From Candidatus Uhrbacteria bacterium (GTDB taxonomy: Bacteria > Patescibacteriota > Patescibacteriia > UBA9934 > UBA10169), in the NCBI GenBank assembly GCA_016187485.1, contig JACPJO010000005.1, positions 71,499-135,498 on the forward strand: a DNA stretch of 64,000 nt, in the 5' to 3' direction. The position numbers and the translations under genes were made by a program. The notes beneath the pieces are model-generated. The model was given only the letters and a program-made list of their open reading frames with translations, ran no database searches and was not told where the DNA came from. Within the stretch, counting starts at the first letter, position 1, and every line of letters starts with the position of its first letter. Of the stretch, positions 3,272 through 55,499 are shown piece by piece.

Positions 3272-4734
3272 GCAAGGCGCTTACGGGCTTCTTCAAGCCG
3301 ATAGAGCGTCTCTAGTTTACCAAAAACCCAGGCAAGTTCATACGGGCTTGGGGATTGCGCTTTGCCGGAAAGGGCAACACGCATAGGCCAGAGCACTCCC
3401 CCGCGGTCAAGCTGGTTTGCCGCAAGATACGTCTGCACGTTATTCTCAAGAGCCAACACTTCGGAAAATATCTCATCCGCAACTGTGGAAAGATGTTCAA
3501 CGAGTCTTCCGAGTTGTGCAACAGCGTCCTCACGTGTGGACTTCCTCCACACAAGAAGGCCGGGATCGTAGTCCAGCGGTTCAAGATACGGCCCGAGACG
3601 TCCTGGCAATTCGGCAAGGGTTGTTGCCCGTTCGCGCTCGACTGTCAGCGCACGCAAAAGGACAGGATTTTGAAAGTCCAGTGTTTCCGAAAAAGGGTGT
3701 ACGGCGCGCGCGAGTTCCTCGATATTAAGGTGGCGGAGATAGTGGGCGTTCACCCAGTCGAGTTTTTCATAGTTCACAACGGCGCCGGCGCGGTTTACCC
3801 GCGAGAGATCAAACAGAGCGGTAAGTTCTTCTGTGGAGTAAATCTCTTGATCTGATTTTGGATTGAATCCAAGCGTGGCGACAAAGTTATTCAAAGCCGC
3901 GGGAAGATACCCGCGTTTCAAGTAATCCTCCACCGCCACGTCTCCTTGTCGTTTGGAGAGTTTTGTTCGATCGGCATTTAATAAATTCGGTAAGTGGGCA
4001 AACGTCGGGGCCTCCCACCCAAGAGCCGCGTAGAGCATGATTTGCTTAGGTGTGGAAGAAATCCAGTCCTCTCCTCGCAGGACATGCGAAATCTCCATGA
4101 AGTGATCATCCACGACTACCGCAAGATGGTAGGTTGGGAAACCATCGGATTTTAAGAGAACTTGGTCGTCCACGTCGGCGTTGGGAAATTTCATGGCGCC
4201 GTAGACGACGTCCTCAAAAATTGTCTCACCATCGGGGACCAGAAGGCGGATGACATACGACTCCCCCGCTCCCGCGCGACGGTCAGATTCTTCTTTTGAG
4301 AGGTGTAGGCATGTGCGATCGTATTTTGTCATGCGCTTTGCCAGCGTTTGCTCTCGCCGCATGGTCTCTAGTCGTTCGGCGGAACAAAAACACCGATACG
4401 CCGAGCCCACGCGCAACAGTTCTTCCGCCCACTGTTTGTAGGTATCAAGCCGTTTTGATTGGATGTATGGTCCAAAAGATCCTTTCTCTGCGATGTCTCC
4501 CTTGTCGTCGAGGACCGGTCCCTCGTCGTAGGAAATTCCCATCACGTCAAGCGTGCGGATAAGCGCTTCGGTTGCTCCGGGGATGTAGCGCTCGCGATCG
4601 GTGTCTTCGATGCGGAAAACGAGCGATCCCTGATGTTGGCGCGCAAAAAAATAGGCGTAGAGTGCAGTGCGGAGTCCGCCAATGTGCAGATAGCCCGTGG
4701 GAGAAGGAGCAAAACGTGTGCGAACCGGTTTCAT
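3268..4734 (-). CDS. gltX: Glutamyl-tRNA synthetase
   Basis: The translation has a class I HIGH motif (PTGYLHIGGLRTALYAY) and KLSKR (KMSKS-like). The start is set at MKPVRTRFAPSPTG, and its ATG overlaps the upstream stop (ATGA). Confidence 0.9.
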   Translation of the reverse strand: MKPVRTRFAPSPTGYLHIGGLRTALYAYFFARQHQGSLVFRIEDTDRERYIPGATEALIRTLDVMGISYDEGPVLDDKGDIAEKGSFGPYIQSKRLDTYKQWAEELLRVGSAYRCFCSAERLETMRREQTLAKRMTKYDRTCLHLSKEESDRRAGAGESYVIRLLVPDGETIFEDVVYGAMKFPNADVDDQVLLKSDGFPTYHLAVVVDDHFMEISHVLRGEDWISSTPKQIMLYAALGWEAPTFAHLPNLLNADRTKLSKRQGDVAVEDYLKRGYLPAALNNFVATLGFNPKSDQEIYSTEELTALFDLSRVNRAGAVVNYEKLDWVNAHYLRHLNIEELARAVHPFSETLDFQNPVLLRALTVERERATTLAELPGRLGPYLEPLDYDPGLLVWRKSTREDAVAQLGRLVEHLSTVADEIFSEVLALENNVQTYLAANQLDRGGVLWPMRVALSGKAQSPSPYELAWVFGKLETLYRLEEARKRLA

Positions 4735-5495
4735 ATGGATCGCAGTGTACTTCGAATGACAAGGATTGGAAAGAGAATAACCGCGTGATAGATGCGCCGG
4801 AAACGTCGTGGTTCGCAGAGGAGTCGGTACATCCACTCAAGTCCAAACGCGCGCATCCAACGTGGGGCGCGCGTTTGGCGGCCCGAGAGGAATTCCAGAG
4901 CTCCGCCGATACCGATACCGACACGCACAGAAGAAAAACTTTTCAGATGCTCCGCGAGCCACCGCTCTTGTTTGCCATGCCCGAGAGAGACAGCAAGAAT
5001 ATGCGGCTGCCATTCATGGATTGTACGAATAATCTCCTCTCCACCCGACCATACTTCCCCATCCATCGTTATAGGTCCGCCACCCACACCGCGCGCAAGG
5101 AGCCCAGGATACATTCGGGCGAGATTTTCCGCAGCACGAGGTGCATCCTCATTATGCATCCCACCGACAAGCAGAAGTCGCTTTCCCCCCCGTGCTGATT
5201 GACGAGCAAGAGTGTGGAGCGCATCAACACCTGAAAAGCGTACAAGCTTCTTTCCCAGTAAAAATGCGGCGAGGACAAGACCAAAACCGTCTACCAACCG
5301 GAGGTCGGCAGAATTCAACACCTTGCGGAAATGTGGATCTTTTTCGGCCAAAACTAACATTTCCGGGTTTGGCGTGACGACAAGCGCGGCTTTCGTCCCC
5401 TGGAGAAACCCAAAGAGGCGCCCACCCACTTCTTGACGAGTTATAGACTCGAGCCCTACGCCAAGAAGAGCCACAGATTGTTCATTTATCCCCAT
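4731..5495 (-). CDS. WecB/TagA/CpsF family glycosyltransferase
   Basis: The 254-aa translation matches the WecB/TagA/CpsF family (LLGVGL..., VTPNPEMLV, LRLVDGFGLV). Confidence 0.7.
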   Translation of the reverse strand: MGINEQSVALLGVGLESITRQEVGGRLFGFLQGTKAALVVTPNPEMLVLAEKDPHFRKVLNSADLRLVDGFGLVLAAFLLGKKLVRFSGVDALHTLARQSARGGKRLLLVGGMHNEDAPRAAENLARMYPGLLARGVGGGPITMDGEVWSGGEEIIRTIHEWQPHILAVSLGHGKQERWLAEHLKSFSSVRVGIGIGGALEFLSGRQTRAPRWMRAFGLEWMYRLLCEPRRFRRIYHAVILFPILVIRSTLRSI

Positions 5496-5587: not shown

Positions 5588-8218
5588 ATGCTCCCAAACA
5601 ATTTTACCCACAAGTCGCAAGAAGCTATTCAGCAAGCGCATATGCTGGCACAGGAAAATGGTCAGCCAGCCATAGAGCCGATTCACCTTTTGGCCTCCCT
5701 CCTCCGTCAGGACGATGGTGTGGTCGTCTCTCTTTTCCAAAAATTGGAGGTGGTGATCTCTGCCCTGCGTGCCGATATTGATGAGATTCTCGATTCCCTT
5801 CCCCGCCAACGTGGTCCGCGGCCCAATGTGCTGGGGCAGGTGTATCTTTCCCAGGAAATGGCCAATGTCTTTGGCGCAGCGGCAGAGTTTGCAAAACAAT
5901 TCAATGATGACTTCATTTCTACCGAGCACCTGTTGCTTGGGCTGCTGCGTGACAAAAACGTGGGAAGTTTTCTTGCAAAGTATAACGTGAATGAAGAGGC
6001 CGTGATGCGCGCGCTCAAAGATATTCGCGGGTCGCAGCGCGTGGATACACAAGAGCCTGAATCTCGTTACCAAGCGCTTGAAAAGTATTCGCGTAACTTA
6101 ACGGAAGAAGCGCGTAAAGGGCGTTTGGATCCTGTGATTGGGCGCGATACAGAAATTCGCCGCGTCATGCAAGTACTTTCGCGCCGCAAGAAGAACAACC
6201 CTGTGTTAATCGGCGAGGCGGGCGTGGGAAAGACCGCCATCATGGAAGGACTTGCCCAGCGTATTGTGGACAGTGACGTCCCAGAGCTTCTCAAAAACAA
6301 AGAGGTCGTCTCGCTTGATCTCGGCGCTCTTGTGGCGGGGACAAAGTATCGTGGAGAGTTCGAGGACCGGCTCAAAGCTGTTCTTAAGGAGATTCACCAA
6401 TCAGGTGACCGTTTCATTTTATTTATTGATGAATTGCACACCGTTGTGGGTGCGGGAACGTCGGAAGGCGGCACGCTGGACGCCTCCAATATGCTGAAAC
6501 CTGCGCTGGCGCGCGGGGAGCTTCGTGCGGTGGGGGCAACAACGCTCAAGGAGTATCAAAAATATATCGAGAAGGATCCGGCGCTTGAACGGCGATTCCA
6601 GCCGGTGTTTGTCGACGAACCGGATGCGGAAGATACGATTGCAATTCTGCGTGGTATCAAAGAAAAGTACGAGGTGCACCACGGAGTGCGCATTACGGAC
6701 CCTGCGCTGGTGTCGGCGGTAGAGTTGTCGGTGCGCTACATTTCTGATCGCCAACTGCCGGATAAAGCGGTGGATTTGATTGATGAAGCCGCCGCGAGTT
6801 TGCGCATGCAGATTGATTCGATGCCAGAAGAGCTCGATAGCATGAAGCGCGATCTTATGCGACTTGAAATTGAAGCGAAGGCTCTCGAAAGCGAGAAAGA
6901 CAAGGTGTCTACCGCGCGGCGGAAAGAGATTGAACGGCTGCTTGGCGATTTGCGCGAGAAGGTCATGGGTCTTGAAGCGCGGTGGCAAAATGAGAAAGAA
7001 AAAATTACAGACATTCACCGTATTAAGGAAGACACGGAAAAACTCAAATTGAAAGCCGAAATTGCCGAGCGTCAACAGAATCTCGAAGAGGTTGCGCGCA
7101 TTCGTTATTCAGAGATTCCAGCAAAGGAGAAAGATTTGCAGAAAGCCGGACGCGCGCTGCGAGAACTTCAAAAAGACCGCGGTATTCTGAAGGAGGAGGT
7201 CACCGAGGAAGATATTGCCGTCGTTGTTTCACGGTGGACGAATATTCCGGTGGCGAAAATGCTTGAATCAGAACGGGCGAAGCTTGTGCGCATGGAAGAG
7301 GAGATCAAGAAACGTGTGGTTGGACAGGATGATGCCATTGTGGCCGTCTCGAATGCCCTTCGCCGTTCACGCGCAGGCGTCGCCGAAGAAAATCGGCCGA
7401 TCGGCTCCTTCATTTTTATGGGGCCGACAGGGGTGGGAAAGACGGAGTTGGCGCGGGCGCTTGCGGAATTCATGTTTAACGACGAGGACGCACTCATCCG
7501 GCTTGATATGAGCGAGTACATGGAGAAGCATGCCACAAGTAAGATGCTCGGTTCCCCGCCGGGGTATGTCGGTTACGAGGAAGGTGGACAGCTGACCGAG
7601 ATTATTCGTCGCCGGCCATACGCGGTCGTGTTATTCGATGAGATAGAGAAGGCGCACCCAGATACGTTTAACGTTCTCCTGCAGATTCTCGATGACGGGC
7701 GACTTACGGATGCGAAAGGGCGTAAAGTAAATTTCAAGAATACGATTGTCATCATGACATCCAACATCGGGTCAGACCTGATCCTTTCTTCTGGCGCGCG
7801 CGGTGCTATTGGATTTACGGCGAGCGAAGGAGCGGCAGGAGAACGCCAGGAAATACATACACGCTTGCAGGAGATGCTGCGTGATCATTTCCGACCGGAG
7901 TTTTTGAATCGCATTGACGACACGATTGTCTTCGATCCTCTTCAACAGGCGGACCTCAGTCACATTGTGGAACTTCAGCTCGCTCGCGTAGCGAAGCGTT
8001 TACATGAGCACCACGACTTGACGCTCGATGTTTCCGATTCAGCGAAGAAAGTGTTGACGCAGCACGGGTTTGATCCGAAATACGGGGCGAGACCGCTCAA
8101 GCGCGCTATACAGACATACCTTCTCAACCCCCTCGCAAAAGAGATTCTTGCGGGCGACATCAAAGACGGCAGTAAGGTTCGTGTGAGTGCAAAGAACGGA
8201 ACATTATTGTTTACCTAA
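5588..8218 (+). CDS. clpB: ClpB disaggregase (two AAA+ domains plus middle coiled coil)
   Basis: The 876-aa product has an N-domain, two Walker A motifs ([16 protein letters not shown]) and a middle coiled-coil region. Confidence 0.95.
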
Positions 8219-8270: not shown

Positions 8271-9278
8271 CTACTTGCTCACTGCCTTGTCCACGGAAAG
8301 GACGAGCCGCGAATCGGCTCCGAGCTCGAAGGAGCTGTCGGCGGTGATGGGCATCACCCGTCCGTTCATCGACCCCATGGCGAGGTAGCCCTGGGCGGTG
8401 AGCTCTGCGAGAAGCTCGGGCCGGACGTGGTATGTGCCGGGCGAGACGATCCAGTAGCCGGCGAGGGCGCTGTTGGACTCGACTGGATTGCCCGCGGCGT
8501 TGTAGAGGGGGTTGTTGGCGGCATCGCGTGCCTGCGACCGTCGCTCGAAGACGATCTGCTCGGACGCGAATTCGAGCAGGTGCTCGTCCGGATCGCCGAA
8601 GGCTGGTGTCACAACTTCGACCACCGGCATTTCGTGCAAGACCACCTCCAACACGTTCTCCATGCCGATCTTGAGGGTGGAGCTGTCGAGCTCGCCCCAG
8701 TAGATGGAGCGGCCGATGGGGCTCGTGCGCAGAACGATGGTTCCCACACCGGCGTAGGTCTGGAAGCGGATCCGGTTCGAGTACTCCTCGGCTTCCTCGG
8801 CGAACTTACGGCCTTCCATCTGGTATTGGTCGCCGCTGTACACCAGGGCGACTTCCCATGTGCTGAGGGAGTCCGTCGTGACTTCCACGGTTGCGCTCCC
8901 GGCGCTCACCGTCACGTTGGCGCGGCACCAGTCGGCGAAACCTGCCTTCTGGAACTTGTCGCTGAGTTCGTTGCAGGCGAGTTCGCCGCTGCTCAACTGG
9001 TAGACCAGCGGAAGGTTGCGGCGGACCATGTAGGCGCCTTCCAGCGTGGCAAGACTTCGCCGACGGATGACCTCCTCGGCCCAGGTCAGATTCCCCACCT
9101 CGCCGGAAGGCTTCTCGGTCACGAGACGCGCCACGACCGTGGCCTTGGTGGGGTCGTCCACCTGCACCGTCGACGTGGTGGTGCCGGACTCCGGCTCGGC
9201 GGCGAAGGCACTCCCGGCGAAGAGCGTGACGCTGGTGATGACGAAGGCGCAGAGCGCCGACAGACTGTGGCTAGACAT
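8271..9278 (-). CDS. Secreted protein of unknown function (signal peptide, ~65% GC)
   Basis: The 335-aa ORF has a signal peptide (MSSHSLSALCAFVITSVTLFAGSAFA). Its composition is balanced, whereas the opposite-strand 413-aa ORF is Gly/Arg/His-rich shadow. Identical hairpin repeats flank the gene. Confidence 0.6.
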   Translation of the reverse strand: MSSHSLSALCAFVITSVTLFAGSAFAAEPESGTTTSTVQVDDPTKATVVARLVTEKPSGEVGNLTWAEEVIRRRSLATLEGAYMVRRNLPLVYQLSSGELACNELSDKFQKAGFADWCRANVTVSAGSATVEVTTDSLSTWEVALVYSGDQYQMEGRKFAEEAEEYSNRIRFQTYAGVGTIVLRTSPIGRSIYWGELDSSTLKIGMENVLEVVLHEMPVVEVVTPAFGDPDEHLLEFASEQIVFERRSQARDAANNPLYNAAGNPVESNSALAGYWIVSPGTYHVRPELLAELTAQGYLAMGSMNGRVMPITADSSFELGADSRLVLSVDKAVSK

Positions 9279-9394
9279 GTACGTTCCTCCGTATGTCCGG
9301 TTTTCCCTCCCGTGGATCCAGTATACCCACGTTCAGGACCAGGAAACATAGGGCAATTTTTCAGAAATGTCAATGTTCAGCCCCTCACATGCCC

Positions 9395-9423
9395 AAAAAT
9401 CAGGAGCTTAGCTCCTGATTTTT
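9395..9423. terminator. Perfect 13-bp-stem hairpin AAAAATCAGGAGC-TTA-GCTCCTGATTTTT (bidirectional rho-independent terminator)
   Basis: Read directly from the sequence. It lies between the XDH-family operon and the secreted-protein gene. Confidence 0.7.
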
Positions 9424-9425
9424 GG

Positions 9426-9465
9426 TAAACGAAAGAGAGCCCGGGGGCTCTCGAGGGAGAAAGGA
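9426..9465. repeat. Copy 2 of the ~45-nt hairpin-containing direct repeat
   Basis: TAAACGAAAGAGAGCCCGGGGGCTCTCGAGGGAGAAAGGA sits immediately 3' of the FAD-subunit gene. On the minus strand it reads as a stem-loop followed by TTTCGTTTA. Confidence 0.7.
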
Positions 9466-10458
9466 CTAGTTTTTACGGGCCAGGTCCATGAGGGCACGGC
9501 GGACCTCGACCTCTGCTTTTGTCGCGCGCCACGTTTGGAAGGATAGATCGCCGTGGACGTTGGTCATGGGCTTTGTGGCCCGACCGACCTTTGCCGCGAT
9601 CTCGCACGCGACCTCTTCGGTCATCTCACGTCCCACGGGCAGTTCGAGTACGCGCGGCTGTGGCCGCACCGAGGAGATGACGATATTCACCCGTTCGCAC
9701 ACAGTGCTCTGGAACCATGCTCCGATCGAGAGCGTCATGGTCGAGAAGCTGATGGCGAGACGTGGAGAGACCTTCACGAACGCCCCACGGAACCCTCTGA
9801 CTGGGCGCGGCACGCGAATGTTGCGAATGAACGTTTCGGACGGAAGAGCAAGGTGGCCCGGGAAGAAGCCGCTTGAAGTGAGGGCATCTGCCAGGCGTAC
9901 GTCACGGATCCCCTTGTGTGTGTGGATTTCGAGGCTGGCACCGTAGAGAAGGAGCGGACCCACCGTGTCGCCCGAACGAGCGGCAACGCAGGCTGTCTGG
10001 CTCCCCGTGACGTGGCATGTATTCCCGTCCTTCTTGAGGCAGCCGCCAAGCGCTGCTCGCCACAAGGAATCCTTGTTGTACCAGTCGCAGCGCGTATCCA
10101 GAGCGATGTTGCCGCCGATCGTGCCGGCACTCCTGTGCTGTGGTGCGCCGACCAGCCCTGCGCTCTTCGCGAGCAGAGGAAGTCGGTCAGTTAACCACCA
10201 CTCCACTTCTGCCAGTGTCGTGAGCGCGCCAATGGAAATGAAGGGCTGACGCGGGTCGTCCGTGGTGCCGCGGAAGCCTCGGATTTCCTCGAGACTCACG
10301 AAGGTCGGCGCCTCCCCGTAGAGGCCGTACTTTGCGTTGTAGAGAACGTCGGTGCCGCCCGCCACGAGGATGGATCCCGGATGCTCCTGCCGTATGGCAA
10401 GGAGAGTGGGGATCGACTGGGGCGTAAGACACCGAGTGCCTAACGGAAGCGGGAGCAT
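9466..10458 (-). CDS. FAD-binding subunit of a xanthine dehydrogenase/CO dehydrogenase-family molybdoenzyme (CoxM/XdhB-like)
   Basis: The start is set at the internal Met (MLPLPLGTRCLTPQSIPTLLAIRQEHPGSILVAGGTDVL...), 1 nt downstream of the large-subunit stop. The product matches the FAD-binding domain of molybdopterin dehydrogenases (GGTDVL, AGTIGGNIA). Confidence 0.8.
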   Translation of the reverse strand: MLPLPLGTRCLTPQSIPTLLAIRQEHPGSILVAGGTDVLYNAKYGLYGEAPTFVSLEEIRGFRGTTDDPRQPFISIGALTTLAEVEWWLTDRLPLLAKSAGLVGAPQHRSAGTIGGNIALDTRCDWYNKDSLWRAALGGCLKKDGNTCHVTGSQTACVAARSGDTVGPLLLYGASLEIHTHKGIRDVRLADALTSSGFFPGHLALPSETFIRNIRVPRPVRGFRGAFVKVSPRLAISFSTMTLSIGAWFQSTVCERVNIVISSVRPQPRVLELPVGREMTEEVACEIAAKVGRATKPMTNVHGDLSFQTWRATKAEVEVRRALMDLARKN

Positions 10459-10459
10459 G

Positions 10460-13105
10460 CTACGTCTCTCCCTTCTTGCGGATGGCGGCGAGAACACGTG
10501 CGCCCGTGAAGGGCATGTCGCTTGCCACTGCGCCGCCGGTGGCGTGCAGGATGGCGTTTCCGATGGCGGGCGGCACGGGAAGGAGCGGCCCCTCCCCCGC
10601 TTCCTTTGCCCCATGCGGACTCATGGGGTCGTGGGTTTCGATGATGAACGATTCAACCTCTGGAGCATCGAGTGCCGTAGCGATGCCATGCAGAAGAAGG
10701 TTGGGCTGCTCCAGGAGTCCCCGCGTGCCATATGTCATGCACTCGAAGCGCGCCTCGGAGTCACCCATGGACACGGATCCCTGGATCTGTCCGTGGACGG
10801 CCGAAGGGTTGATGGGCTTTCCACAATCGTGTGCTGCCCAGACGCGCTCGACCCGCACTTCCCCCGTCTCGTTGTCCACGTGCACAAGAGCCACGACGGC
10901 CGTCATGCTATACGTGGGTGAGGCGCCGATGGTGTTGCCGCGGTAGTCGTGCCCATGCGCTTTCACTGGAATGGTGAAGTAGGTGCCTGTGCATGACGGC
11001 GTGCGCGCTCCGCGGTCGAGTTCACGCCGGATTTCACGCGCGGCGTTTACCGCTGCCGTGCCGAGCATGAATGCGCACCGCGAGGAGTAGGCACCGAGGT
11101 CCACTGGACCCAGGGCCGTATCTCCGGTAGTGACGGTGATCCGTTTGCGAGCGATGCCGGTCTCTGCCTCTGCGAGGAGGATCAGCATCATCTCGAGTCC
11201 TTGGCCGATGTCGTTTGCCTGGGTGCAGATGTAGAGCCGTCCGTCCTCCGCCACCGTCATGGTGACGTTAGACTGTGCATCGTCGCGCTGGCCCAAGATG
11301 GCGCCTGCCGTGCCCGAGATGTAGGCGCCCACGGCACAGCCGAGACCAAAGCCGGAGGGAAGCTCGTGGCGATCTTTCCAGCCGCTTGCTTCCTCCACCA
11401 CACGCAGACACTCGAGGATACCAGAACTTGGCACGTGGAAGCCGTTCACCATCTCCTCGCCAGCAGCGATGGCGCCGCGCCGGCGAACCAGGATCGGATC
11501 CAAGCCGAGCTTGGAGGCCGCCATGTCGAGAAGCGTCTCGAAGGCGAACCGCGGTTGGGGTGTGCCGTGCCCTCGCTTGGGACCTTGCGGCGGCTTGTTC
11601 GTGTAGATGCGCCGCGAACGAGCGCGGTAGGCGCCGATCTTGATGGGCGCACCGAGGAGCTGAAGCAGGTAGTAGACCGTGATGGGACCGAACGAGGCGA
11701 AGGCTCCGCCGTCGAGCAGGATGTCTGACTCCACGCCCAGCACTCGACCACCTGCGTCCATGGCAAGACGCATCTGAATGCTCGTGGTGTGTCGTCCACG
11801 GTGGAAGGTGAAGACCTCCTCGCGCGTGTACTGCATCTTTATGGGCCTCTCCGTGACCTGCGCCAGCTTGGCCGCGCACAAGTCGATTTCGGAGATGTCG
11901 GAGTCCCCGCCGAATGCCCCGCCCTTTTTGAGCTGGGTCACGCGGACGTTTTCCTCTGCGACACCCAGCACGTGCGCCAGAGCAACCTGTAGGTAATGAC
12001 TCACCTGTGTGCCAGAGTAGACGTGCAGCTTTTCCCCCGACCAGACAGCGATGACGGCGTGCGTCTCGAGCGCGGCGTGGTTGGAGCCGGGGTACGTGAA
12101 TGTCCCCTCGACGACCACAGCAGCGTCTCGAAACGCCCCCTCCACATCACCGAAGTCCGGCAATTCGACTTCCTTGTACACGTTGTCCGCCCTTGGCGTT
12201 CCCTTGCGAGGATCCACCGCATGGACAAGCGGGGCACCAGCCGCAAGCGCGTCCTTCATGGTAAGCACGGCGGGCAAAGGCTCGTAGCTCACATGGATGG
12301 CCGCGCATGCACGAAGCGCCGTCTGTTCATCCACGGCTGCGACAGCCGCGACGGCCTGGCCCACGTAGAAGACCTCGTGCTGCGCGAGCGCATGCTCGTC
12401 GGCTGCCCAGGGAATGATCCCGTAGGACACCAGCAAGTCCTTGCCCGTGATGACCGCAAAGACGCCTGGCATGGCCTGTGCGTCCTTCGTATCCACCGAC
12501 AGGATCCGCGCGTGCGCATGAGGCGAACGCAGAACCTTGCCTACCAACATGCCGGGCAGGTGGACGTCGTCCGTGTATCCGGCCGATCCATTGGCCCTCT
12601 CCTGCGCGTCGAACTTCACGATCGCATCACCGGGTGCCTCGCGCATTCCTGCGGCAACCTCTACAGCGTCGAAGATGGGGTTGTACCCCGTGCAGCGGCA
12701 GAGGTTTCCCGAAAGCGCGCGCTTGATGGCCGGGCGCGTGGGGCGCGTGTCACGACGCAGAAGCGCCAACCCCGACATCACCATGCCGGGCGTGCACGCG
12801 CCACATTGCGTTCCCTGACACGTACCCATTGCTGTCTGCAGGGCGTGGCCGCGCGGATCGCGGAACGCTCCCTCGATTGTCTCGACCGAATGTCCCTCGG
12901 TCTGGCGAGCCAACGTGAGGCACGACAGCCGCGGCTTGCCGTCTACGAGGACCGTGCACGTTCCGCACGTTCCACTATCGCACCCCTGTTTCGTTCCCGT
13001 CTGCCCCGCCTTGCGAAGGAGCTCGAGGAGCGTACGGGAGTCCGCGACATCTTCGAACGTCGCCTGATCTCCATTTAGCGTGAAGATGAGAGGCCGGTTG
13101 GCCAT
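10460..13105 (-). CDS. Fused [2Fe-2S] ferredoxin plus molybdopterin-binding subunit of an XDH/aldehyde-oxidase/CoxL-family hydroxylase
   Basis: The N-terminus has a plant-type 2Fe-2S site (CDSGTCGTCTV...C) and a second cluster motif (GNLCRCTGY). About 730 aa of Mo-pterin-binding large-subunit sequence follows. The locus is about 65% GC. Confidence 0.85.
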   Translation of the reverse strand: MANRPLIFTLNGDQATFEDVADSRTLLELLRKAGQTGTKQGCDSGTCGTCTVLVDGKPRLSCLTLARQTEGHSVETIEGAFRDPRGHALQTAMGTCQGTQCGACTPGMVMSGLALLRRDTRPTRPAIKRALSGNLCRCTGYNPIFDAVEVAAGMREAPGDAIVKFDAQERANGSAGYTDDVHLPGMLVGKVLRSPHAHARILSVDTKDAQAMPGVFAVITGKDLLVSYGIIPWAADEHALAQHEVFYVGQAVAAVAAVDEQTALRACAAIHVSYEPLPAVLTMKDALAAGAPLVHAVDPRKGTPRADNVYKEVELPDFGDVEGAFRDAAVVVEGTFTYPGSNHAALETHAVIAVWSGEKLHVYSGTQVSHYLQVALAHVLGVAEENVRVTQLKKGGAFGGDSDISEIDLCAAKLAQVTERPIKMQYTREEVFTFHRGRHTTSIQMRLAMDAGGRVLGVESDILLDGGAFASFGPITVYYLLQLLGAPIKIGAYRARSRRIYTNKPPQGPKRGHGTPQPRFAFETLLDMAASKLGLDPILVRRRGAIAAGEEMVNGFHVPSSGILECLRVVEEASGWKDRHELPSGFGLGCAVGAYISGTAGAILGQRDDAQSNVTMTVAEDGRLYICTQANDIGQGLEMMLILLAEAETGIARKRITVTTGDTALGPVDLGAYSSRCAFMLGTAAVNAAREIRRELDRGARTPSCTGTYFTIPVKAHGHDYRGNTIGASPTYSMTAVVALVHVDNETGEVRVERVWAAHDCGKPINPSAVHGQIQGSVSMGDSEARFECMTYGTRGLLEQPNLLLHGIATALDAPEVESFIIETHDPMSPHGAKEAGEGPLLPVPPAIGNAILHATGGAVASDMPFTGARVLAAIRKKGET

Positions 13106-13175: not shown

Positions 13176-13943
13176 TCAAAGCTCGCCGGACGCTTTAAGG
13201 GCGCTTGTATAAAGGCAATAATCACACTCTTTCGATCGGGCTGGCAGGCGGCCATCAAGACATGCTCGCGCGTTGACCAACGCTGACTCTACCCAAGCGG
13301 TATTGCCGGTATAGGGAATCACTTTCACGTCGAATTCCAGTTTTCCGTCGAATGCTTTGCGGTCAGTCTTTCCGTTGCAATAGATGAAGTATCCCGTATC
13401 AGAAACCACAAAACCATTTTGCCGGAGTAGCCATTGGTAGATTTCCATTTGATTCTTGTAACTCTTCTGCCACTCGGCATCGAGTCCGACCTCGCCATCT
13501 TTTGCCGTGGACTTATAATCTACGACAATCAATTTCCCATCTCGTCCAACCCACACGTCGTCTACAGCACCAGTCAGAATAAAATTTGTTGGTTCGTGAT
13601 GATACTGCACGCCCACAAAATTTTCTCGCCATGCATCCAAGTCATCGTGAGCAAAAGGAACCGCATCGATGCCATAGGTCTCCATGAGAGGGTGTGGAGT
13701 GCCAGCCGCCCGATGAAGATCGAATTCTTTTTTAAGGAGAGTGTCTACGGCAGAGTTCAGATTAAAGGGAAACCCGGGCGGGCGATCTACACCAAGCCGG
13801 CGATCCACGTAAAAACACCGTGGGCAATTCAAAAAATTTTCGAGCTTTGAGCGCGAGAGCTTGAACGGCTCGGGAGAGGCAGGATCGAAAATGTTTCTTG
13901 TCCGGACGCCCTTGTAGTATTGCGACATATCTAGAGAAGACAA
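13176..13943 (-). CDS. PD-(D/E)XK nuclease, Cas4/RecB-nuclease-like with probable Fe-S cysteines (no CRISPR context)
   Basis: The product has cysteines at both ends: N-terminal CPRCFYVDR and C-terminal C-x12-CDYC. IVVDYKS is a D..EXK-type motif. Confidence 0.6.
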   Translation of the reverse strand: MSSLDMSQYYKGVRTRNIFDPASPEPFKLSRSKLENFLNCPRCFYVDRRLGVDRPPGFPFNLNSAVDTLLKKEFDLHRAAGTPHPLMETYGIDAVPFAHDDLDAWRENFVGVQYHHEPTNFILTGAVDDVWVGRDGKLIVVDYKSTAKDGEVGLDAEWQKSYKNQMEIYQWLLRQNGFVVSDTGYFIYCNGKTDRKAFDGKLEFDVKVIPYTGNTAWVESALVNARACLDGRLPARSKECDYCLYTSALKASGEL

Positions 13944-14524
13944 CCGAGAAGAACTTTTATATCATCAAGAAGGATCGTTTTTTGATGGATATTATAGATG
14001 GCGACGGCGGGATGGTAGAGGGGAACGATGGCAAGGTTTCCCCATGGTGCCGAAACGCGAAAGGTTTTTCCGTGCAAGCGACTGATGGAGGCAAGCTCGG
14101 CCTCAAGCCCAAAACGGCGCAGGAGGTAGTCCATCGAAAAGCGGCCGAGAGTGGCAAGAACTTTGGGACGGATGATGTCTATTTGTCGCTCGAGAAGTGG
14201 GCCATAGAGGGCAATTTCGTCGGGAAATGGGTCGCGATTTTGCGGTGGGCGATCCTTTACGACGTTCGTGATGTAGACCTCCTCGCGTTTGAGGCCGATG
14301 GATTCAATGAGTTCGTCTAAAATACGTCCGGCGGCTCCACAGAACGGTCGTCCCGTCGCCGCTTCGTTCCTCCCCGGCGCCTCACCCACAAACATGATCT
14401 CAGCATCATGATTTCCCTCGCCCAGGACGGGCAGGACGCCATTTTGTCGCCGCTCATCGGCGAGTGTTGACGAGAGTGCCACCACTTCGTCTCGTATCTG
14501 GCGCATGAGATCTTTCTTATCCAT
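13931..14524 (-). CDS. Family 4 uracil-DNA glycosylase
   Basis: The translation carries GEAPGRNEAATGRPFCGAAGRILDEL and the YITNVVKDRPPQNRDP motif. Confidence 0.85.
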   Translation of the reverse strand: MDKKDLMRQIRDEVVALSSTLADERRQNGVLPVLGEGNHDAEIMFVGEAPGRNEAATGRPFCGAAGRILDELIESIGLKREEVYITNVVKDRPPQNRDPFPDEIALYGPLLERQIDIIRPKVLATLGRFSMDYLLRRFGLEAELASISRLHGKTFRVSAPWGNLAIVPLYHPAVAIYNIHQKTILLDDIKVLLGCLL

Positions 14525-14585
14525 ACGCGCCTATTCTACTGGTATTGAAACTTTACGCCAATTCCTTTACAATGCCGGGGCATTT

Positions 14586-14661
14586 CGGGCTATAGCTCAG
14601 TAGGTAGAGCGCTACGTTCGGGTCGTAGAGGCCGTGGGTTCGAGTCCCGCTAGCCCGACCA
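14586..14661 (+). tRNA. tRNA-Pro (anticodon CGG)
   Basis: Manual cloverleaf: acceptor CGGGCTA/TAGCCCG, anticodon loop TTCGGGT, T-loop TTCGAGT, and an encoded CCA. Confidence 0.75.
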
Positions 14662-14679
14662 GAGATGCTTATGTCTTGA

Positions 14680-14755
14680 CGGGCCGTGGCGCAGTTGGTA
14701 GCGCGCTTGCATGGGGTGCAAGAGGTCGCCAGTTCGAGTCTGGTCGGCCCGACCA
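14680..14755 (+). tRNA. tRNA-Pro (anticodon GGG)
   Basis: Manual cloverleaf: acceptor CGGGCCG/CGGCCCG, anticodon stem CTTGC/GCAAG with loop ATGGGGT, T-loop TTCGAGT, and an encoded CCA. Confidence 0.7.
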
Positions 14756-14787
14756 AAAAACAGACCGTGAGGTCCGTTTTTGCTTTA

Positions 14788-15900
14788 CTACTCACTGTTT
14801 GAATCATCTTCCTCGTCATGTACTTTATGCCTAGCCCAACCATAAAGGGCGAGCGCCGCCGCTTTATTAATTGGTTTTCGGTTGACGTCACCAAAAATAG
14901 GGTTTCGGAAGCTTTTCTGTGGTCTTGAAAGAATCGGCCCAGACCCATCATCCATTTGGAGCATAAGGGCGGAATAAATTTTTGACTCCTCAGGAGTCCT
15001 TACCAGCATCTTCAAATGTTCATAGCAAATACGTTTAAGTTCTTTATCCTTTAAACGGATAGCGTATTCTGCTAAAAAGAGCCAATCTTCTCGCTGTAGA
15101 TGATCATGACCGAACTCTGCGAAAGCTACCAACAACTTCTCTAACAAAACACGCTCGACTTTTGTACCCCTTGTACCTTTTGTTTGCTGGCCAGCTTTAG
15201 TTGCAATTTTCTCCCTTAAAAACTTCAAAAAGTCTCTGCCAGACATCTGTTTTGAAAGTCTCCGAAGGTGTCCGAGCAAAGGCCTATGATTGTTTGTTTT
15301 TCTATTCAGAATTACGTTTACGTGTGCTTTCAGGTACTCTTCATCTTCTGGATTTCCTCCAAGTTCCAAGAATCTCTGAAAATACATATCATCATCGCCC
15401 CTTCGCGATGTATTAGCTAGATAGATGCAGTCCTCGAGACTCGTGATATCCGTTATGGGTGTGTTCATGAGCTCTGCACGGTGCTCCTGTAAGCCTGTAG
15501 AACCTTTTGTTGGTTCTTTCTGAGTTTTTTCCCACTCAGGTGCAATTTGAGAAAGACGTTTCTCTAAAAGATACGAATATAGGCCGCGTGCTTCAGTTGA
15601 TCTCGAAAAATCATAAACGTGCAACAATGCCCGGACATTACTCTCGTCTGCCCTATCAAGATGTTTACGAAAGATAGACGTAGCACGACTCTTTAGATCA
15701 TGGTTACTCAACACGACCTTCATAATATTTTTCAGTGTGTCTGGGTTAAACCAATCTACTCGCTCAATAAGAGCAAGTGCCTCTCTTGGTTTATTTTCGT
15801 TTACGAACTGGGTTATAAGTTCTATGATCTGGCGTCGCTGTTCCAGACACAACCTCTCTTCGTCGTTAAGCTCTGCCCAGGATTTCTCATATTTTGCCAT
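14788..15900 (-). CDS. Orphan protein of unknown function in an AT-rich (~42% GC) segment beside the tRNA-Pro pair
   Basis: The 370-aa ORF has no recognisable domain. Its composition is sharply lower in GC than the flanking genes. Confidence 0.6.
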   Translation of the reverse strand: MAKYEKSWAELNDEERLCLEQRRQIIELITQFVNENKPREALALIERVDWFNPDTLKNIMKVVLSNHDLKSRATSIFRKHLDRADESNVRALLHVYDFSRSTEARGLYSYLLEKRLSQIAPEWEKTQKEPTKGSTGLQEHRAELMNTPITDITSLEDCIYLANTSRRGDDDMYFQRFLELGGNPEDEEYLKAHVNVILNRKTNNHRPLLGHLRRLSKQMSGRDFLKFLREKIATKAGQQTKGTRGTKVERVLLEKLLVAFAEFGHDHLQREDWLFLAEYAIRLKDKELKRICYEHLKMLVRTPEESKIYSALMLQMDDGSGPILSRPQKSFRNPIFGDVNRKPINKAAALALYGWARHKVHDEEDDSNSE

Positions 15901-15906
15901 AACGAA

Positions 15907-16488
15907 CTATATCATCTTTTCTACCCCCTCCCAATGAATATTATTTAGGAACGCCTCCAGATACGCCGACTTGTTCGTGCCGTATTGCTTCGCGAAGGCG
16001 TGCTCCCAACAGTCGAGGGCAAGGAGGATTTCGACGCCGGCGGGGACGTTGTTGGCGTGCTCAAAGACGACATAGTGCTCGAGTGTCTCTTCGCCGCGAT
16101 TGTTGACGAGAAGCACCCATCCCGGTGTCGCAGAAGCACAGGCCAGGAGATCCTGCTTCCAGGCATCCATCGAGCCGAAACTTTTCACAAGCGCGACCTC
16201 AAGAACCGATGGAATGACAGATCCGCTTGGGGTGAGCGCGTCAAAATAGAGTTCGTGCAGCTTCGCGCCGTTCCATGCAACAGATTTTCTGCGTACAAGC
16301 TCGCTGTGCGGCGCGTACGAATAATTTCCCTTCTTCTCAACATTTGGAAGCGTCGCGCAAATTTCGTTATACTTTTTTACGTACCCCTCGTAGAGTTTCA
16401 GGTGCTCCTCTATGAGATCCGCGTTGAACCCAGGAAGAGAGCCAATAAGATGCTGGTAATTTTTCACGTCGTGCATACTACTCGACAA
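15907..16488 (-). CDS. sodA: Fe/Mn superoxide dismutase family protein (divergent N-terminal domain)
   Basis: The C-terminal DCWEHAFA (DVWEHAYY-like) and the WNGAKLHELYF region are conserved. In the N-terminal HHxKHH region the histidines are mostly replaced (EEHLKLYEGYV). Confidence 0.7.
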   Translation of the reverse strand: MSSSMHDVKNYQHLIGSLPGFNADLIEEHLKLYEGYVKKYNEICATLPNVEKKGNYSYAPHSELVRRKSVAWNGAKLHELYFDALTPSGSVIPSVLEVALVKSFGSMDAWKQDLLACASATPGWVLLVNNRGEETLEHYVVFEHANNVPAGVEILLALDCWEHAFAKQYGTNKSAYLEAFLNNIHWEGVEKMI

Positions 16489-17047: not shown

Positions 17048-18427
17048 ATGCGATTCTTTGCTATTTTTACTGCTCTCGCTGTCTTGTTTGCCCCCTCTCC
17101 CCTTCTTGCCTTCAACCCAAACTATCTTATCTCCGACCACGAATTTACCGATCGATTTGCTCTTGATCTTGGAACGATTCAGAATTTACTTGCGAAGGGG
17201 ACGTTGGCACGCTACGTTGTGGAAGATGTTGACGGCCGCCGCCGTTATGCTGCGGATATTATTTGGCGTGCGGCGCAACGAAACGGGATCTCGCCAAAAG
17301 TGATCATTACCATGTTGCAAAAAGAGCAGAGCCTCGTGGAAGATACTTCGCCCGCTTCCACACAATTTGATTGGGCGATGGGATATGGCATTTGCGACAC
17401 GTGCTCGTACGAAACTCCTTCCGCGCAGCGTTTCAAGGGATTCGCCAAGCAGATCAACTCTGCCACTCTGCAACTTGCGGAAGGATATTTGGCAGATCTT
17501 CTTTCAAAAGGTAAGACCGTTCTTGGTTTTGCGCCCGGCACAGCAAAGACCGTAGACAACACGGTGGTGGTACCAGAGAACAACGCAACGGCGGCACTGT
17601 ACACGTATACACCGCACTTACACGGGAATAAAAATTTTGTGACAATTTTTGATCGTTACTTTGCCAAGCGCCACCCGTCGGGAACACTTCTGCGCGATCC
17701 AGAATCTGGAGGTGTATACCTGATTCAATTTGGAAAAAAGCGCCCGTTCCTTTCGCTGGCGGCGCTTGTGTCGCGCTACGATGTGGCGCGTGTGATTGAC
17801 GCAAGCCCTACTGACCTTGCTGGGTATGAGACAGGCTTGCCCATAGCCTTTCCAAATTACGCGCTCCTTGAAGCTGCTGGTACTGTCTATCTCCTTGTGG
17901 ATGACACCGTCCGCCCGTTTGCGTCCTCGGATGTCCTTCGCGGACTTGGGTTCAATTCGGATGAGATTCTTGCGGTTACCGCCGAAGAACTTGCACCCTA
18001 CGACAAAGGAGAGCCTATTGTGCTTGATAGCTCGTACCCGGAGGGTGCGATCTTCCAGCACGACACAAGCGGCACGTATTACCTCATCCAAAACGGACGT
18101 CGGCATTTGGTCGCTACTGATGAAATTCGCAAACTTACCTGGGGTACGAAGGAGGTCCATCGTGTGGGTGAGGACCGCATTGTTGCGTATCCGGAACGCG
18201 CAGCCGTCAAGCTTCCCGACGGACTTCTAGTTAAATCCTCGGATGATAGTCGTGTATATGTGATTTCTGATGGTACGCGCAGGCTTATTCCCGATGAAGA
18301 AACTTTCCGCGCGCTTGGCTGGAAGTGGGAGCTTGTGAAGACCGTTTTGCCGGAAACCCTGCGTGTCCATCCAGAAGGTCTGCCGCTTGAATCCTCAACT
18401 CAAGCTGTGAGTATTGCCACACCATAG
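17048..18427 (+). CDS. Secreted protein with four ~45-aa C-terminal repeats (G-x-VYLI-x2-G-x-RR-x-I type) and a possible cell-wall-hydrolase-like N-domain
   Basis: The start is set at MRFFAIFTALAVLFAPSPLLA (signal peptide), behind a TGGTATAAT extended -10. The repeats are SGGVYLIQFGKKRPF, AGTVYLLVDDTVRPF, SGTYYLIQNGRRHLV and SRVYVISDGTRRLI. Confidence 0.6.
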   Translation: MRFFAIFTALAVLFAPSPLLAFNPNYLISDHEFTDRFALDLGTIQNLLAKGTLARYVVEDVDGRRRYAADIIWRAAQRNGISPKVIITMLQKEQSLVEDTSPASTQFDWAMGYGICDTCSYETPSAQRFKGFAKQINSATLQLAEGYLADLLSKGKTVLGFAPGTAKTVDNTVVVPENNATAALYTYTPHLHGNKNFVTIFDRYFAKRHPSGTLLRDPESGGVYLIQFGKKRPFLSLAALVSRYDVARVIDASPTDLAGYETGLPIAFPNYALLEAAGTVYLLVDDTVRPFASSDVLRGLGFNSDEILAVTAEELAPYDKGEPIVLDSSYPEGAIFQHDTSGTYYLIQNGRRHLVATDEIRKLTWGTKEVHRVGEDRIVAYPERAAVKLPDGLLVKSSDDSRVYVISDGTRRLIPDEETFRALGWKWELVKTVLPETLRVHPEGLPLESSTQAVSIATP

Positions 18428-33413: not shown

Positions 33414-34022
33414 CTATTCGTAGGCAAGGACGAGTTCAATCAGGGAACGTTCTGCTCTTGTCGGAAACGTCATCTGCTTGAAGATGCCTGTGACGCACTC
33501 CTCGACCGTTGGCGTTGTGGACACGCTCGTCTCCACGTTGGCGCCGTCTACACTACCGTCTACCCTGATGCGCAGATATATGATGAGACGGACGAATCCG
33601 CTCACCCTGTCGACAACCGGATCGAAGGCGAAGCAGGCCGTCAGTTTTTTCTCGGCCTTATCCACAACCTGGTAGAACGGATCTGCGGTTCTCGGATCGC
33701 CCGAGAGAAGATTGGGAACGAGAGGGCCGATTCCGATCGTGTTCCCAATGATCAGCTGCCTGCTCCTTGCCGTCGGCGGTGCCTCACGCTTCTTGAGCTC
33801 GATGACGATCTCCTCCATCCGGGAGCGGATCACCGCAGCCTTGTCGATGAGCGCGTCGTGCTCGCTCTTCAGTCGGAAGAACTCTGCCGCCAGGTCCTCG
33901 GTTGCGGCCTGCCAGAGAGGGACGACGATGGGGTTTCCGGCCTCCCCGCTCACTGCCGGCAGCGGCAGGGAGAGCGTGACAAGAAAGAGGAAGACAGCGG
34001 AAAAAAGCGCGGTTTTTTGCAT
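33414..34022 (-). CDS. Secreted protein of unknown function
   Basis: The product has a signal peptide (MQKTALFSAVFLFLVTLSLPLPAVSG). Confidence 0.5.
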   Translation of the reverse strand: MQKTALFSAVFLFLVTLSLPLPAVSGEAGNPIVVPLWQAATEDLAAEFFRLKSEHDALIDKAAVIRSRMEEIVIELKKREAPPTARSRQLIIGNTIGIGPLVPNLLSGDPRTADPFYQVVDKAEKKLTACFAFDPVVDRVSGFVRLIIYLRIRVDGSVDGANVETSVSTTPTVEECVTGIFKQMTFPTRAERSLIELVLAYE

Positions 34023-36927: not shown

Positions 36928-37518
36928 TTAGGTATGAACAAGTTGAATGTGGACACCGGGAGAGAGCCATGCCCCAGGAGCTGAACCCAGCATAACGTGA
37001 AAGACGCTTTGATAAGAGGGATGGATGCGCACAAGGACGTTGTCAAATGTCTCGCGTGGATCATGCGCAAGGCAGACGCGTACGCGCTGGCCATTTTGTA
37101 CATGAAAATCTTCCGCGTCGTTTGGCGAGAGGTGAAGGTGCGGAAGTGGAATCAGTACACCCTGCGTGAGATCTATGGCACCTGCCGGTCCTTGCAAGCG
37201 GACAGACGGAGATTTCCTTGTGTCACCGGAATCACGATCGGGAATTTCAAGACCAAGCACACGTGCATCCCCAAGAGAAAGTTCCAGCTGGGTTTCTTCC
37301 CACGCGGGACCGATGATCGTCACATGTGCCAACATACCGCTCGGACCTGCCACCCGCACATCTTCACGATACACAAACTGTCCGTCAAGATACGGACGCG
37401 GACGCAGAAAAGAGAAGGCGTGCGTTTCCCCAAATAAAAGTCGGCCGTGCCGCTCGCTCAAGTGCACATGCGGGGTCTGAGCTTCAACGGGAATGCTCTG
37501 GTGCAACAGTGTGCCCAT
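36928..37518 (-). CDS. PduL-type phosphate acyltransferase (phosphotransacetylase-like)
   Basis: Two PduL half-site motifs are present (PHVHLSERHGRLLFGE and LPHLHLSPNDAEDFHVQNGQRV). The start is tentative (MGTLLHQ) and overlaps the corA 3' end by about 35 nt. Confidence 0.55.
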   Translation of the reverse strand: MGTLLHQSIPVEAQTPHVHLSERHGRLLFGETHAFSFLRPRPYLDGQFVYREDVRVAGPSGMLAHVTIIGPAWEETQLELSLGDARVLGLEIPDRDSGDTRKSPSVRLQGPAGAIDLTQGVLIPLPHLHLSPNDAEDFHVQNGQRVRVCLAHDPRETFDNVLVRIHPSYQSVFHVMLGSAPGAWLSPGVHIQLVHT

Positions 37519-46173: not shown

Positions 46174-46247
46174 TCCGGGATCGTCTAGAGGCAGGACGCC
46201 AGGTTCTGGCCCTGGTAACCGTGGTTCGAATCCACGTCCCGGAACCA
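46174..46247 (+). tRNA. tRNA-Gln (anticodon CUG) with a Glu-like D-arm
   Basis: Manual cloverleaf: acceptor TCCGGGA/TCCCGGA, D-arm GTCTAGAGGCAGGAC, anticodon loop TTCTGGC, T-loop TTCGAAT, and an encoded CCA. Confidence 0.7.
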
Positions 46248-46251
46248 GGGT

Positions 46252-46614
46252 ATGACTATTTCAGGTGTTGTCGTGAAAGGACAGGGTTTAGGCAGAGTGC
46301 TTGGTTTTCCCACTGCTAATCTTGCATTCTTTCCCGCTCTTCCCCCGGGTGTCTATCTCGCATACGTTCGTACAAAAGAAGGTCTGTTCCCTGGTGTGCT
46401 TGCGCAAGGAAAGAAAACAGAGGTTCACCTCCTAGATTTTACCGGGGATCTTTACGGGAGCAAGATAGAGATTGAGGTAGACGAGCGTATTTCCGATATG
46501 ATTCCGTGGACGACGCTCGAGGAGTTGCGAGAAAAAATTTCACACGATATTGAGAACGCCCGATATGTTTTCCGGCATCGTCCGCGCAAAGGGAGAGATT
46601 GCGAACATCAATGA
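46252..46614 (+). CDS. Riboflavin kinase (monofunctional, RibF C-domain type)
   Basis: The translation has GQGLGRVLGFPTANL. The 3' end overlaps ribE. Confidence 0.7.
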   Translation: MTISGVVVKGQGLGRVLGFPTANLAFFPALPPGVYLAYVRTKEGLFPGVLAQGKKTEVHLLDFTGDLYGSKIEIEVDERISDMIPWTTLEELREKISHDIENARYVFRHRPRKGRDCEHQ

Positions 46615-55070: not shown

Positions 55071-55499
55071 ATGACTGCGAACACGTACCCTGACTGGAGG
55101 TCACCCACATCGGATCTGGCAAAGCTCGCTCTCATCAAGAGGGAGTGGGGCGCACAGATCGACAACACCTACCTCTGGTACGAGATCGGGCCCATCACTC
55201 GGCTCACCAACGAGGAGGTCGCCACCATCGTGAAGCAGTGCTTCGTTCACCACACCGTCGGCTTCGGCGACGTGGAGATCCACCCGTCCATGCTCATCCA
55301 GGGAGCAATGTTGCTGCGCCTGCGCGGCACCCTCTTCCTCCAGCCCGCCCTCACGATTCGCAACCGTTACTGCCCGCTCTACCAGGTGGGCCACGGGGGC
55401 GGATTCGTCACGACGGCGGACGACGATTGCGTCAACTTCCACCGCGTGTGGGAACTGGACGCGAAGGAGACCGAGGTGGGGCCCATCGTCCTGCACTGA
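55071..55499 (+). CDS. High-GC orphan protein of unknown function
   Basis: A 142-aa ORF with a good RBS in a patch of about 65% GC. A Gly/Arg-rich shadow ORF lies on the opposite strand. Confidence 0.55.
   Translation: MTANTYPDWRSPTSDLAKLALIKREWGAQIDNTYLWYEIGPITRLTNEEVATIVKQCFVHHTVGFGDVEIHPSMLIQGAMLLRLRGTLFLQPALTIRNRYCPLYQVGHGGGFVTTADDDCVNFHRVWELDAKETEVGPIVLH

Follow-up and report, generated by a model that had tools for sequence, protein, structure and literature searches.

Among described systems, the closest to the locus analysed here are the hypervariable slots or islets that flank tRNA genes, with which it shares the position on a tRNA 3' flank, a deviant composition, absence from syntenic relatives and a cargo differing from genome to genome. 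At the level of the gene product, the systems to be compared are scaffold proteins of the TPR/alpha-solenoid type and the HEPN toxins. A literature search on tRNA-linked islands in Patescibacteria returned nothing relevant. The locus is contained in a stretch of 64,000 nucleotides (nt) from a metagenome-assembled Candidatus Uhrbacteria genome (referred to as the window), and its central element is ORF370, an open reading frame (ORF) of 370 amino acids (aa) next to two tRNA-Pro genes (coordinates in Table 1). A first-pass annotation of this DNA had interpreted ORF370 as an orphan gene in a small foreign island or in the remnant of an integrated element, possibly with a function in defence or abortive infection. 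We consider another history rather more probable, in which ORF370 is an accessory gene for a TPR-like protein which was inserted into a variable slot beside tRNA-Pro(GGG) and was then inverted, and whose product acts as a scaffold or adaptor. The phenomenon, the presence of an accessory gene in a variable slot next to a tRNA gene, is ordinary in kind.

ORF370 is a genuine protein-coding gene. Its product is identical to that of the NCBI entry HYW18_03170 ("hypothetical protein"), and the same protein sequence occurs in Logan contigs from at least eight sequencing runs (11 contigs in total). The length, extent and AT-rich composition of about 42% GC reported by the first-pass annotation were confirmed by a measured GC content of 42.5% (GC1 0.53, GC2 0.35, GC3 0.40 for the three codon positions), which is the lowest among the 58 ORFs of the window. 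Compared to the native background of 51 ORFs (53.2 ± 2.0% GC), ORF370 deviates with z-scores of −5.3 for GC and −3.0 for GC3. The contrast to the neighbouring genes therefore holds, but their GC content had been overestimated at 55% or more, since the direct neighbours range from 49.5 to 54% and about 53% is the more accurate figure. The gene was described as lying directly 3' of two tRNA-Pro genes, and it is indeed located on a tRNA 3' flank, with 32 nt between its stop codon and the 3' end of tRNA-Pro(GGG), but it is encoded on the minus strand and runs convergently to both tRNA genes on the plus strand. On its other side, the stop codon of a gene for a superoxide dismutase-like protein (SOD) precedes ORF370 by 6 nt on the same strand. 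A promoter-like site, identified only as a match to the consensus, ends 5 nt ahead of the ATG of ORF370. ORF370 is probably expressed, and its transcript could either be leaderless or near-leaderless from the promoter-like site or arise from SOD read-through across the short gap.

To compare the locus with its relatives, we fetched three related Uhrbacteria loci (L087, L088 and L009, the last from the UBA10169 group) via the adjacent SOD protein and analysed them gene by gene by tblastn. The identities to the window were 76% for SOD and 82% for the uracil-DNA glycosylase (UDG) in L087, 69% and 70% in L088, and 66% and 71% in L009. All three loci show the same gene order, namely SOD > tRNA-Pro(CGG) > tRNA-Pro(GGG) > variable slot > UDG (> acylphosphatase) > PD-(D/E)XK nuclease, and the content of the slot differs in each of them (Table 1). 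The window is collinear with L009 over about 24 kb (positions 1663–25652), except for an inverted tRNA-Pro pair and the slot cargo of L009, and from ClpB onward it is collinear with L088 as well, again apart from the inverted tRNA pair and the slot cargo of L088. Only two blocks in the window are without a counterpart in L009, which are ORF370 and a block of high GC content coding for a molybdenum hydroxylase. The tRNA-Pro pair runs in the direction of SOD and UDG in each of the three relatives and against it in the window. No coding sequence similar to ORF370 was found at this position or elsewhere in the L087, L088 and L009 loci, where tblastn produced only noise up to E ≤ 10. ORF370 thus combines a strongly deviant composition (z(GC) −5.3) with absence from all three relatives, and from the sequence comparison it appears to be a lineage-specific insertion of a single gene at a tRNA-flank hotspot. 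This retains one part of the first-pass interpretation, the compositionally deviant lineage-specific insert beside tRNA-Pro, and leaves aside the element or island around it. The Logan contigs add a separate observation: those inspected individually (L001–L008 from runs SRR12113383–SRR12113432; 8 shown of 11) all break about 90 nt past the stop codon of ORF370, inside tRNA-Pro(GGG). This suggests a branch in the assembly graph, caused by co-occurring relatives that share the tRNA gene with different flanks.

The proposal that the tRNA-Pro pair is an integration hotspot was supported by the relatives, beyond the different slot cargo in each genome. In L087, the 3' end of tRNA-Pro(CGG) together with six flanking bases is repeated perfectly over 27 nt (4729–4755 and 4888–4914), and the two copies bracket a filler of 132 nt. 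In L009, 59 nt from the 3' part of tRNA-Pro(GGG) are perfectly duplicated (10858–10916 and 10942–11000), and a 51-nt tandem repeat with 5' fragments of the tRNA is also present (10730–10831). The tRNA-Pro 3' duplicates look like the scars of attachment (att) sites, and we therefore regard the tRNA-Pro locus as a hotspot of recombination or integration in this lineage. The window itself was searched for a direct repeat of either tRNA-Pro 3' end by exact and 3-mismatch pattern searches, a repeat finder and blastn-short, and none longer than 12 nt, which corresponds to the chance level, was detected in the entire 64 kb.

These data also bear on the possibility that ORF370 is the surviving cargo of a degraded tRNA-integrated island or prophage, perhaps an abortive-infection or defence gene. 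Its position at the tRNA 3' flank, its deviant GC content and its absence from the relatives would be expected in that case, and the duplicates in L087 and L009 indicate that integrase-type events probably occurred at the locus. The window, in turn, lacks an att repeat, and near ORF370 we recognised neither an integrase nor any phage, plasmid or other mobility gene, the insert consisting of one ORF without any Pfam, PHROG or NCBIfam hit. All other genes in the 24-kb collinear stretch, except for the molybdenum-hydroxylase block, have syntenic orthologues in L009. Moreover, tblastn searches for relatives of ORF370 gave zero matches in 50,697 phage records (INPHARED) and 72,556 plasmid records (PLSDB), and none were found in IMG/VR. 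We consider an origin from an integrated element very unlikely, also with regard to the family data presented below.

ORF370 turned out not to be an orphan. A word-indexed protein search with ORF370 recovered the query alone, and repeating it with the family alignment yielded three proteins without extending the family. Searching 1.84 billion cluster representatives by phmmer resulted in 31 further proteins at E ≤ 1e-3, and the list comprised 15 proteins at E ≤ 1e-10 when the query's own entry is included. Two of the listed proteins, P0010 and P0017, were excluded as unrelated repeat proteins, which left a family set of 30 members consisting of ORF370 and 29 full-length homologues. The homologues are 307–395 aa long, align end to end and show 17–28% identity in this alignment, while the overall figure for the roughly 30 distant homologues is 20–32%. 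Conserved motifs of the family are PxWDG, DPxxCL, RYxELGG(D/N)xxDxxYLK, FLR, DWx(H/Y)IA, NPI(W/Y/F) and PVNxxA, together with an invariant G182. As stated by the first-pass annotation, ORF370 has no recognisable domain, with zero hits in Pfam, PADLOC, PHROGs and NCBIfam, and we observed no consistent match to these libraries across the 30 members either: Pfam TPR_14 matched two of them (best E 0.0015), and every other family was hit by one member only.

We predicted the structure of ORF370 by AlphaFold2 with the family alignment and obtained a confident all-alpha solenoid (mean pLDDT 87.2, pTM 0.68) of 18 helices and zero strands, with a disordered segment at residues 321–344 which bears the conserved NPI(F/W) motif. 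Foldseek searches against PDB and BFVD retrieved solely TPR or other solenoid proteins with weak scores (E ≥ 0.02, TM-scores 0.2–0.3), among them the TPR domain of KLC1, a designed CTPR, IFIT2, Acl4, the TPR domain of OGT and spliceosomal HAT repeats. A profile search of the PDB matched designed TPRs alone (E 6e-4), and this match was confined to residues 15–80. According to the model, the protein belongs to an irregular TPR-like alpha-solenoid class built from tandem helical hairpins. No conserved constellation of catalytic-type residues was evident in the family alignment, and no signal peptide was evident from inspecting the N-terminal sequence of ORF370 by eye. The isoelectric points (pI) of the family have a median of 9.0 (8.5 for ORF370) and exceed 8.5 in 24 of the 30 members, while acidic values of 5.2–6.0 were obtained for six members, close relatives of ORF370 among them. 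Several Arg/Lys columns are conserved (R115, R176, K191 and R229). Among the sequences collected, the family is an undescribed, sparse and fast-evolving one with a generic fold, seen only on contigs of Patescibacteria type.

The defence reading of ORF370 had been based in part on a single R-x4-H string of HEPN type (RKTNNH), which was already rated as not diagnostic. The string is present (R200–H205), but it is located in a loop between helices 187–199 and 206–218 of the AlphaFold2 model and falls into variable, gapped columns of the family alignment, so it does not represent a HEPN motif. Because R-x4-H is not conserved and no HEPN or PADLOC model matches, we rejected the HEPN/abortive-infection reading. 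ORF370 had zero hits in PADLOC and PHROGs; PADLOC gave three sporadic single-member matches among the 29 aligned homologues, and any PADLOC or PHROG family that was hit at all was hit by a single member of the 30. The missing PADLOC match and the housekeeping neighbours described in the following speak against a defence or abortive-infection cargo, and thereby also against a mobile remnant carrying one.

The genomic context of the family was sampled in twelve loci with eleven distinct members; a narrower family alignment had given two metagenome loci. All twelve resemble housekeeping neighbourhoods of Patescibacteria, such as dnaG-rpoD, S20-ruvA-murligase, gatCA, the ATP synthase operon, or pth with genes for a signal peptidase and an HGTP_anticodon protein. 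The family gene was single each time, and neither a conserved partner gene nor an integrase was found in these loci. This again disfavours the surviving cargo of a mobile element. The only locus hinting at a secretion or mobile module is that of homologue P0007 in a Patescibacteria metagenome-assembled genome (L077, 9579–18020), where the gene is located between a Phage_holin_4_2 gene and a gene for a 916-aa DUF8128/DUF87 ATPase (HerA/VirB4-type), followed by one for a 1344-aa protein; none of the other loci has this context. Two homologues, P0005 and P0008, share a common synteny (tRNA-Arg(CCG) > gene > S20 < ruvA > mur ligase). Their mutual identity is 42%, compared to 63–70% for the S20, RuvA and Mur-ligase neighbours and about 40% for a fourth neighbour, an LTD-domain protein. 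The family is therefore at least sometimes inherited vertically and evolves fast.

The P0005/P0008 pair is also relevant for interpreting the low GC content. In 7 of 11 loci, among them those of this vertically inherited pair with a difference of about 10 points, the GC content of the family gene is lower than that of its neighbours by 4 points or more; in the other 4 it matches the neighbours, so that we discarded low GC as a universal family trait. Low GC alone is weak evidence of recent transfer if vertically inherited members show it as well. For ORF370 in the window, more weight is carried by the lack of the gene in the syntenic relatives. The same data would agree with ORF370 being a native ancestral gene that was lost in the sampled relatives and acquired its low GC content by weak constraint and AT-biased mutation, and the co-directional position 6 nt behind SOD and the identical protein in Logan contigs of at least eight runs, which indicates a stable presence in the population, would agree with it too. 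Such a history requires that the gene was lost three times independently, or once in an ancestor shared by relatives to which the closest one, L087, belongs, in addition to the tRNA inversion. It would also have to account for a GC deviation of −5.3 standard deviations, the most extreme in the window, and for the sparseness of the family in Patescibacteria, with some 30 clusters (50% identity) in the set of 1.84 billion representatives. On balance, we regard a native origin as unlikely.

A tRNA gene is present within 250 nt of the family gene in 5 of the 12 loci, namely tRNA-Pro, tRNA-Tyr, tRNA-Arg (twice, in the common synteny) and tRNA-His. The background frequency of such adjacency is 4.8% for all loci collected or 13% within the family loci, resulting in P values of roughly 0.001 to 0.05. 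This enrichment could be taken as a further point for a tRNA-integrated remnant. It would likewise be in accordance with ORF370 acting as an RNA- or tRNA-binding helical-repeat factor, in principle similar to PPR, HAT or IFIT proteins, in which case its placement at tRNA and translation genes would be functional. The predominantly basic character of the family with its conserved Arg/Lys columns fits this idea, and in three of the five tRNA-adjacent loci the gene follows the tRNA gene in the same direction at a distance of 20–225 nt. Other members follow a gene for an HGTP_anticodon-domain protein (with a gap of 1 nt) or rpoD, or occur near S20 or an alanyl-tRNA synthetase gene (tRNA-synt_2c), and RNA-binding solenoids, namely IFIT2 and the spliceosomal HAT-repeat proteins, are among the weak fold hits. 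However, the sample is small and the enrichment in it modest, and acidic proteins (six members) are found even among the close relatives of ORF370. A core RNA-processing factor would not be expected to form such a rare and patchy family, and no RNA-binding domain was detected. Because the tRNA species differ and the orientations are mixed, being co-directional or convergent, we interpret the adjacency as reflecting permissive insertion sites rather than a functional link or co-regulation, and an RNA-binding function of ORF370 seems improbable. A broader version of this idea would define the family as an undescribed basic helical-repeat class tied to tRNA loci, either as RNA/tRNA-binding factors or as minimal tRNA-flank cassettes without an integrase. 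If true, it would explain the frequent tRNA adjacency, the persistently low GC content and the fast evolution along with a patchy distribution, but we judge it decidedly unlikely.

We therefore return to ORF370 as an accessory gene gained at the tRNA flank. The spacer between ORF370 and tRNA-Pro(GGG) contains a hairpin with predicted folding energies of −10.5 kcal/mol on the plus strand and −13.1 kcal/mol on the minus strand (z about −2.3 each), and the stem is followed by a U-run on either strand. The stability on both strands indicates a bidirectional intrinsic terminator common to the tRNA-Pro pair and ORF370. The sequence of tRNA-Pro(GGG) is identical in the window and in L087, and a promoter-like sequence precedes tRNA-Pro(CGG) at a similar position in L087 as in the window, as read by eye. 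In the history we favour, this Uhrbacteria lineage would have acquired ORF370 in the variable slot at the tRNA-Pro(GGG) 3' flank. We consider insertion at this site the simplest history because ORF370 still abuts the tRNA 3' end and shares its terminator. An inversion of the block consisting of the tRNA-Pro pair and ORF370 would have followed, the order of events being assigned by parsimony. The inversion would have placed ORF370 6 nt downstream of SOD in the same direction, and convergent with the tRNA genes across the common terminator. The product would be a cytoplasmic, mildly basic and non-enzymatic TPR-like alpha-solenoid, which most likely serves as a scaffold or adaptor and would bind a protein or nucleic-acid partner in the conserved groove of its helical repeats, and the NPI(F/W) peptide in the disordered loop may act as a self- or partner-binding element.

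Several points weigh against this interpretation. The window contains neither inverted repeats at the putative breakpoints of the inversion nor any att trace of the ORF370 insertion. The succession of insertion and inversion is a parsimony argument over four genomes whose SOD proteins are only 65–76% identical, and a loss in the relatives is formally possible with the four loci compared. Furthermore, the fold matches of ORF370 to TPR proteins are statistically weak, and the presumed scaffold or adaptor role is derived from the predicted fold class and from the lack of conserved catalytic-type residues.

Table 1. Features of the ORF370 locus in the window and contents of the corresponding slots in related loci.
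Feature	Position	Strand	Remarks
ORF370 (NCBI HYW18_03170, "hypothetical protein")	14788..15900	−	370 aa; predicted TPR-like all-alpha solenoid; from the ORF list
Promoter-like site TTGGGA-17-TATAGT	15906..15934	−	consensus match only; overlaps SOD stop codon
Fe/Mn superoxide-dismutase-like gene (SOD)	15907..16488	−	Pfam Sod_Fe_C; conserved upstream neighbour of ORF370
Bidirectional intrinsic-terminator hairpin (predicted)	14756..14781	.	A-run, stem-loop, T-run; folding
tRNA-Pro(GGG)	14680..14755	+	ARAGORN and Rfam; 3' flank is the variable slot
tRNA-Pro(CGG)	14586..14661	+	ARAGORN; Rfam RF00005, 68.4 bits
Promoter-like site TTGAAA-17-TACAAT	14545..14573	+	consensus match only; 12 nt upstream of tRNA-Pro(CGG)
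UDG-superfamily uracil-DNA glycosylase gene (PF03167)	13931..14524	−	Pfam UDG 1.3e-31; far side of tRNA pair
PD-(D/E)XK (Cas4-like) nuclease gene, stand-alone	13176..13943	−	PDDEXK_1 1.5e-15
Molybdenum-hydroxylase block	8271-13105		xanthine-dehydrogenase/CO-dehydrogenase type; 61-65% GC, GC3 0.73-0.86 (native genes 0.56)
L087 slot after tRNA-Pro(GGG)			empty (45 nt)
L088 slot after tRNA-Pro(GGG)			156-aa ORF, no known domain
L009 slot after tRNA-Pro(GGG)			tRNA-Leu, NUDIX gene, 133-aa ORF

The genes flanking the locus are conserved. SOD occupies an equivalent place in L009, L088 and L087 (65–76% identity), UDG is 70–82% identical to the copies of the relatives, and the PD-(D/E)XK nuclease, which shows 70–71% identity in L009 and L088, is kept adjacent to UDG in the relatives. 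The first-pass annotation had correctly recognised a Cas4-like nuclease and a UDG across the tRNA pair (Pfam PDDEXK_1 and PF03167) and had considered them in the context of an island. With 70–82% identity and an unchanged order in the relatives, both genes are conserved core neighbours and do not belong to an island. The nuclease reached 27.5 bits against TIGR00372, for which the trusted cutoff is 65, and no repeat arrays were found in the 64-kb window; with the score below the cutoff and no array in the window, we rejected an identity as CRISPR-associated Cas4. The pair or trio of UDG, (acylphosphatase) and PD-(D/E)XK nuclease is kept in Uhrbacteria (13176–14524 in the window, 12230–13895 in L009 and 11340–13017 in L088) without a CRISPR array, and UDG and the nuclease may form a dedicated module for the repair of uracil and DNA ends. 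The nuclease also matches an uncharacterised phage protein family (phrog_31195, 2.4e-20).

Other compositional outliers were observed in the window. The molybdenum-hydroxylase block contains genes for a fused 2Fe-2S and molybdenum cofactor (MoCo)-binding protein (881 aa), an FAD-binding subunit (382 aa) and a 335-aa ORF without a Pfam hit. It is located exactly between ClpB (5588–8218) and the PD-(D/E)XK gene and is absent from this position in L009 and L088. This block is a stronger candidate for horizontal transfer than ORF370 and represents an unusual metabolic set for a bacterium of the Candidate Phyla Radiation (CPR). A second outlier of high GC content in this genome of 53% GC is a Ser/Thr protein kinase gene at 48089–49663 (Pkinase, 5.6e-38; 64% GC, GC3 0.76), and further ORFs with high GC3 are present at 55071–55499 (0.87), 62360–62842 (0.73), 33414–34022 (0.73) and 37021–37437 (0.73). 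At the other extreme, a riboflavin-kinase gene (46252–46614) starts 5 nt after tRNA-Gln(CTG) (region 46174–46614) and is the second most AT-rich ORF (48.2% GC, GC3 0.43), which adds a further case of low GC content in a gene at a tRNA 3' flank. ARAGORN additionally called a 95-nt tRNA-Arg(CCG) at 18157–18251 inside a conserved 459-aa ORF (17048–18427; 57–75% identical in the relatives); Rfam gave no match at E ≤ 0.1, and the call is probably a false positive.

The locus provides a clean small example of the gain of a single gene in the streamlined genomes of CPR bacteria/Patescibacteria, and two insertions of opposite compositional bias occur within one otherwise collinear 24-kb region, one of them at the tRNA-Pro flank. 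The family of about 350 aa with its confidently predicted fold and conserved motifs is a candidate addition to domain databases, and a false lead has been removed, as we have no evidence that ORF370 functions in defence or is of the HEPN type. Should the association with tRNA genes be confirmed in more loci, either a novel RNA-binding scaffold or an uncommon mode of gene mobility in episymbiotic bacteria would be suggested.

Compared to HEPN toxins with their Rx4-6H motif, the likeness of ORF370 consists in its alpha-helical structure and one R-x4-H string, while it is without a partner antitoxin or a defence neighbourhood. With TPR/alpha-solenoid scaffolds such as the TPR domain of KLC, designed CTPR, IFIT and Acl4, it shares an all-alpha architecture of stacked helical hairpins, and two family members match Pfam TPR_14 weakly, but its helices are of irregular length, no significant match to a TPR, HEAT, Sel1 or PPR model was obtained, and the family has motifs of its own (PxWDG, RYxELGG-YLK, DWxHIA and NPIW), which are unmatched in the libraries searched. 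Compared to tRNA-flanking islets, the ORF370 insert amounts to one gene in 1.15 kb, lacks an integrase, an att repeat and mobility genes, and is adjacent to a tRNA pair that is inverted relative to the related loci. Its relatives carry att-like duplicates of the tRNA 3' end, a further feature in common with such slots.

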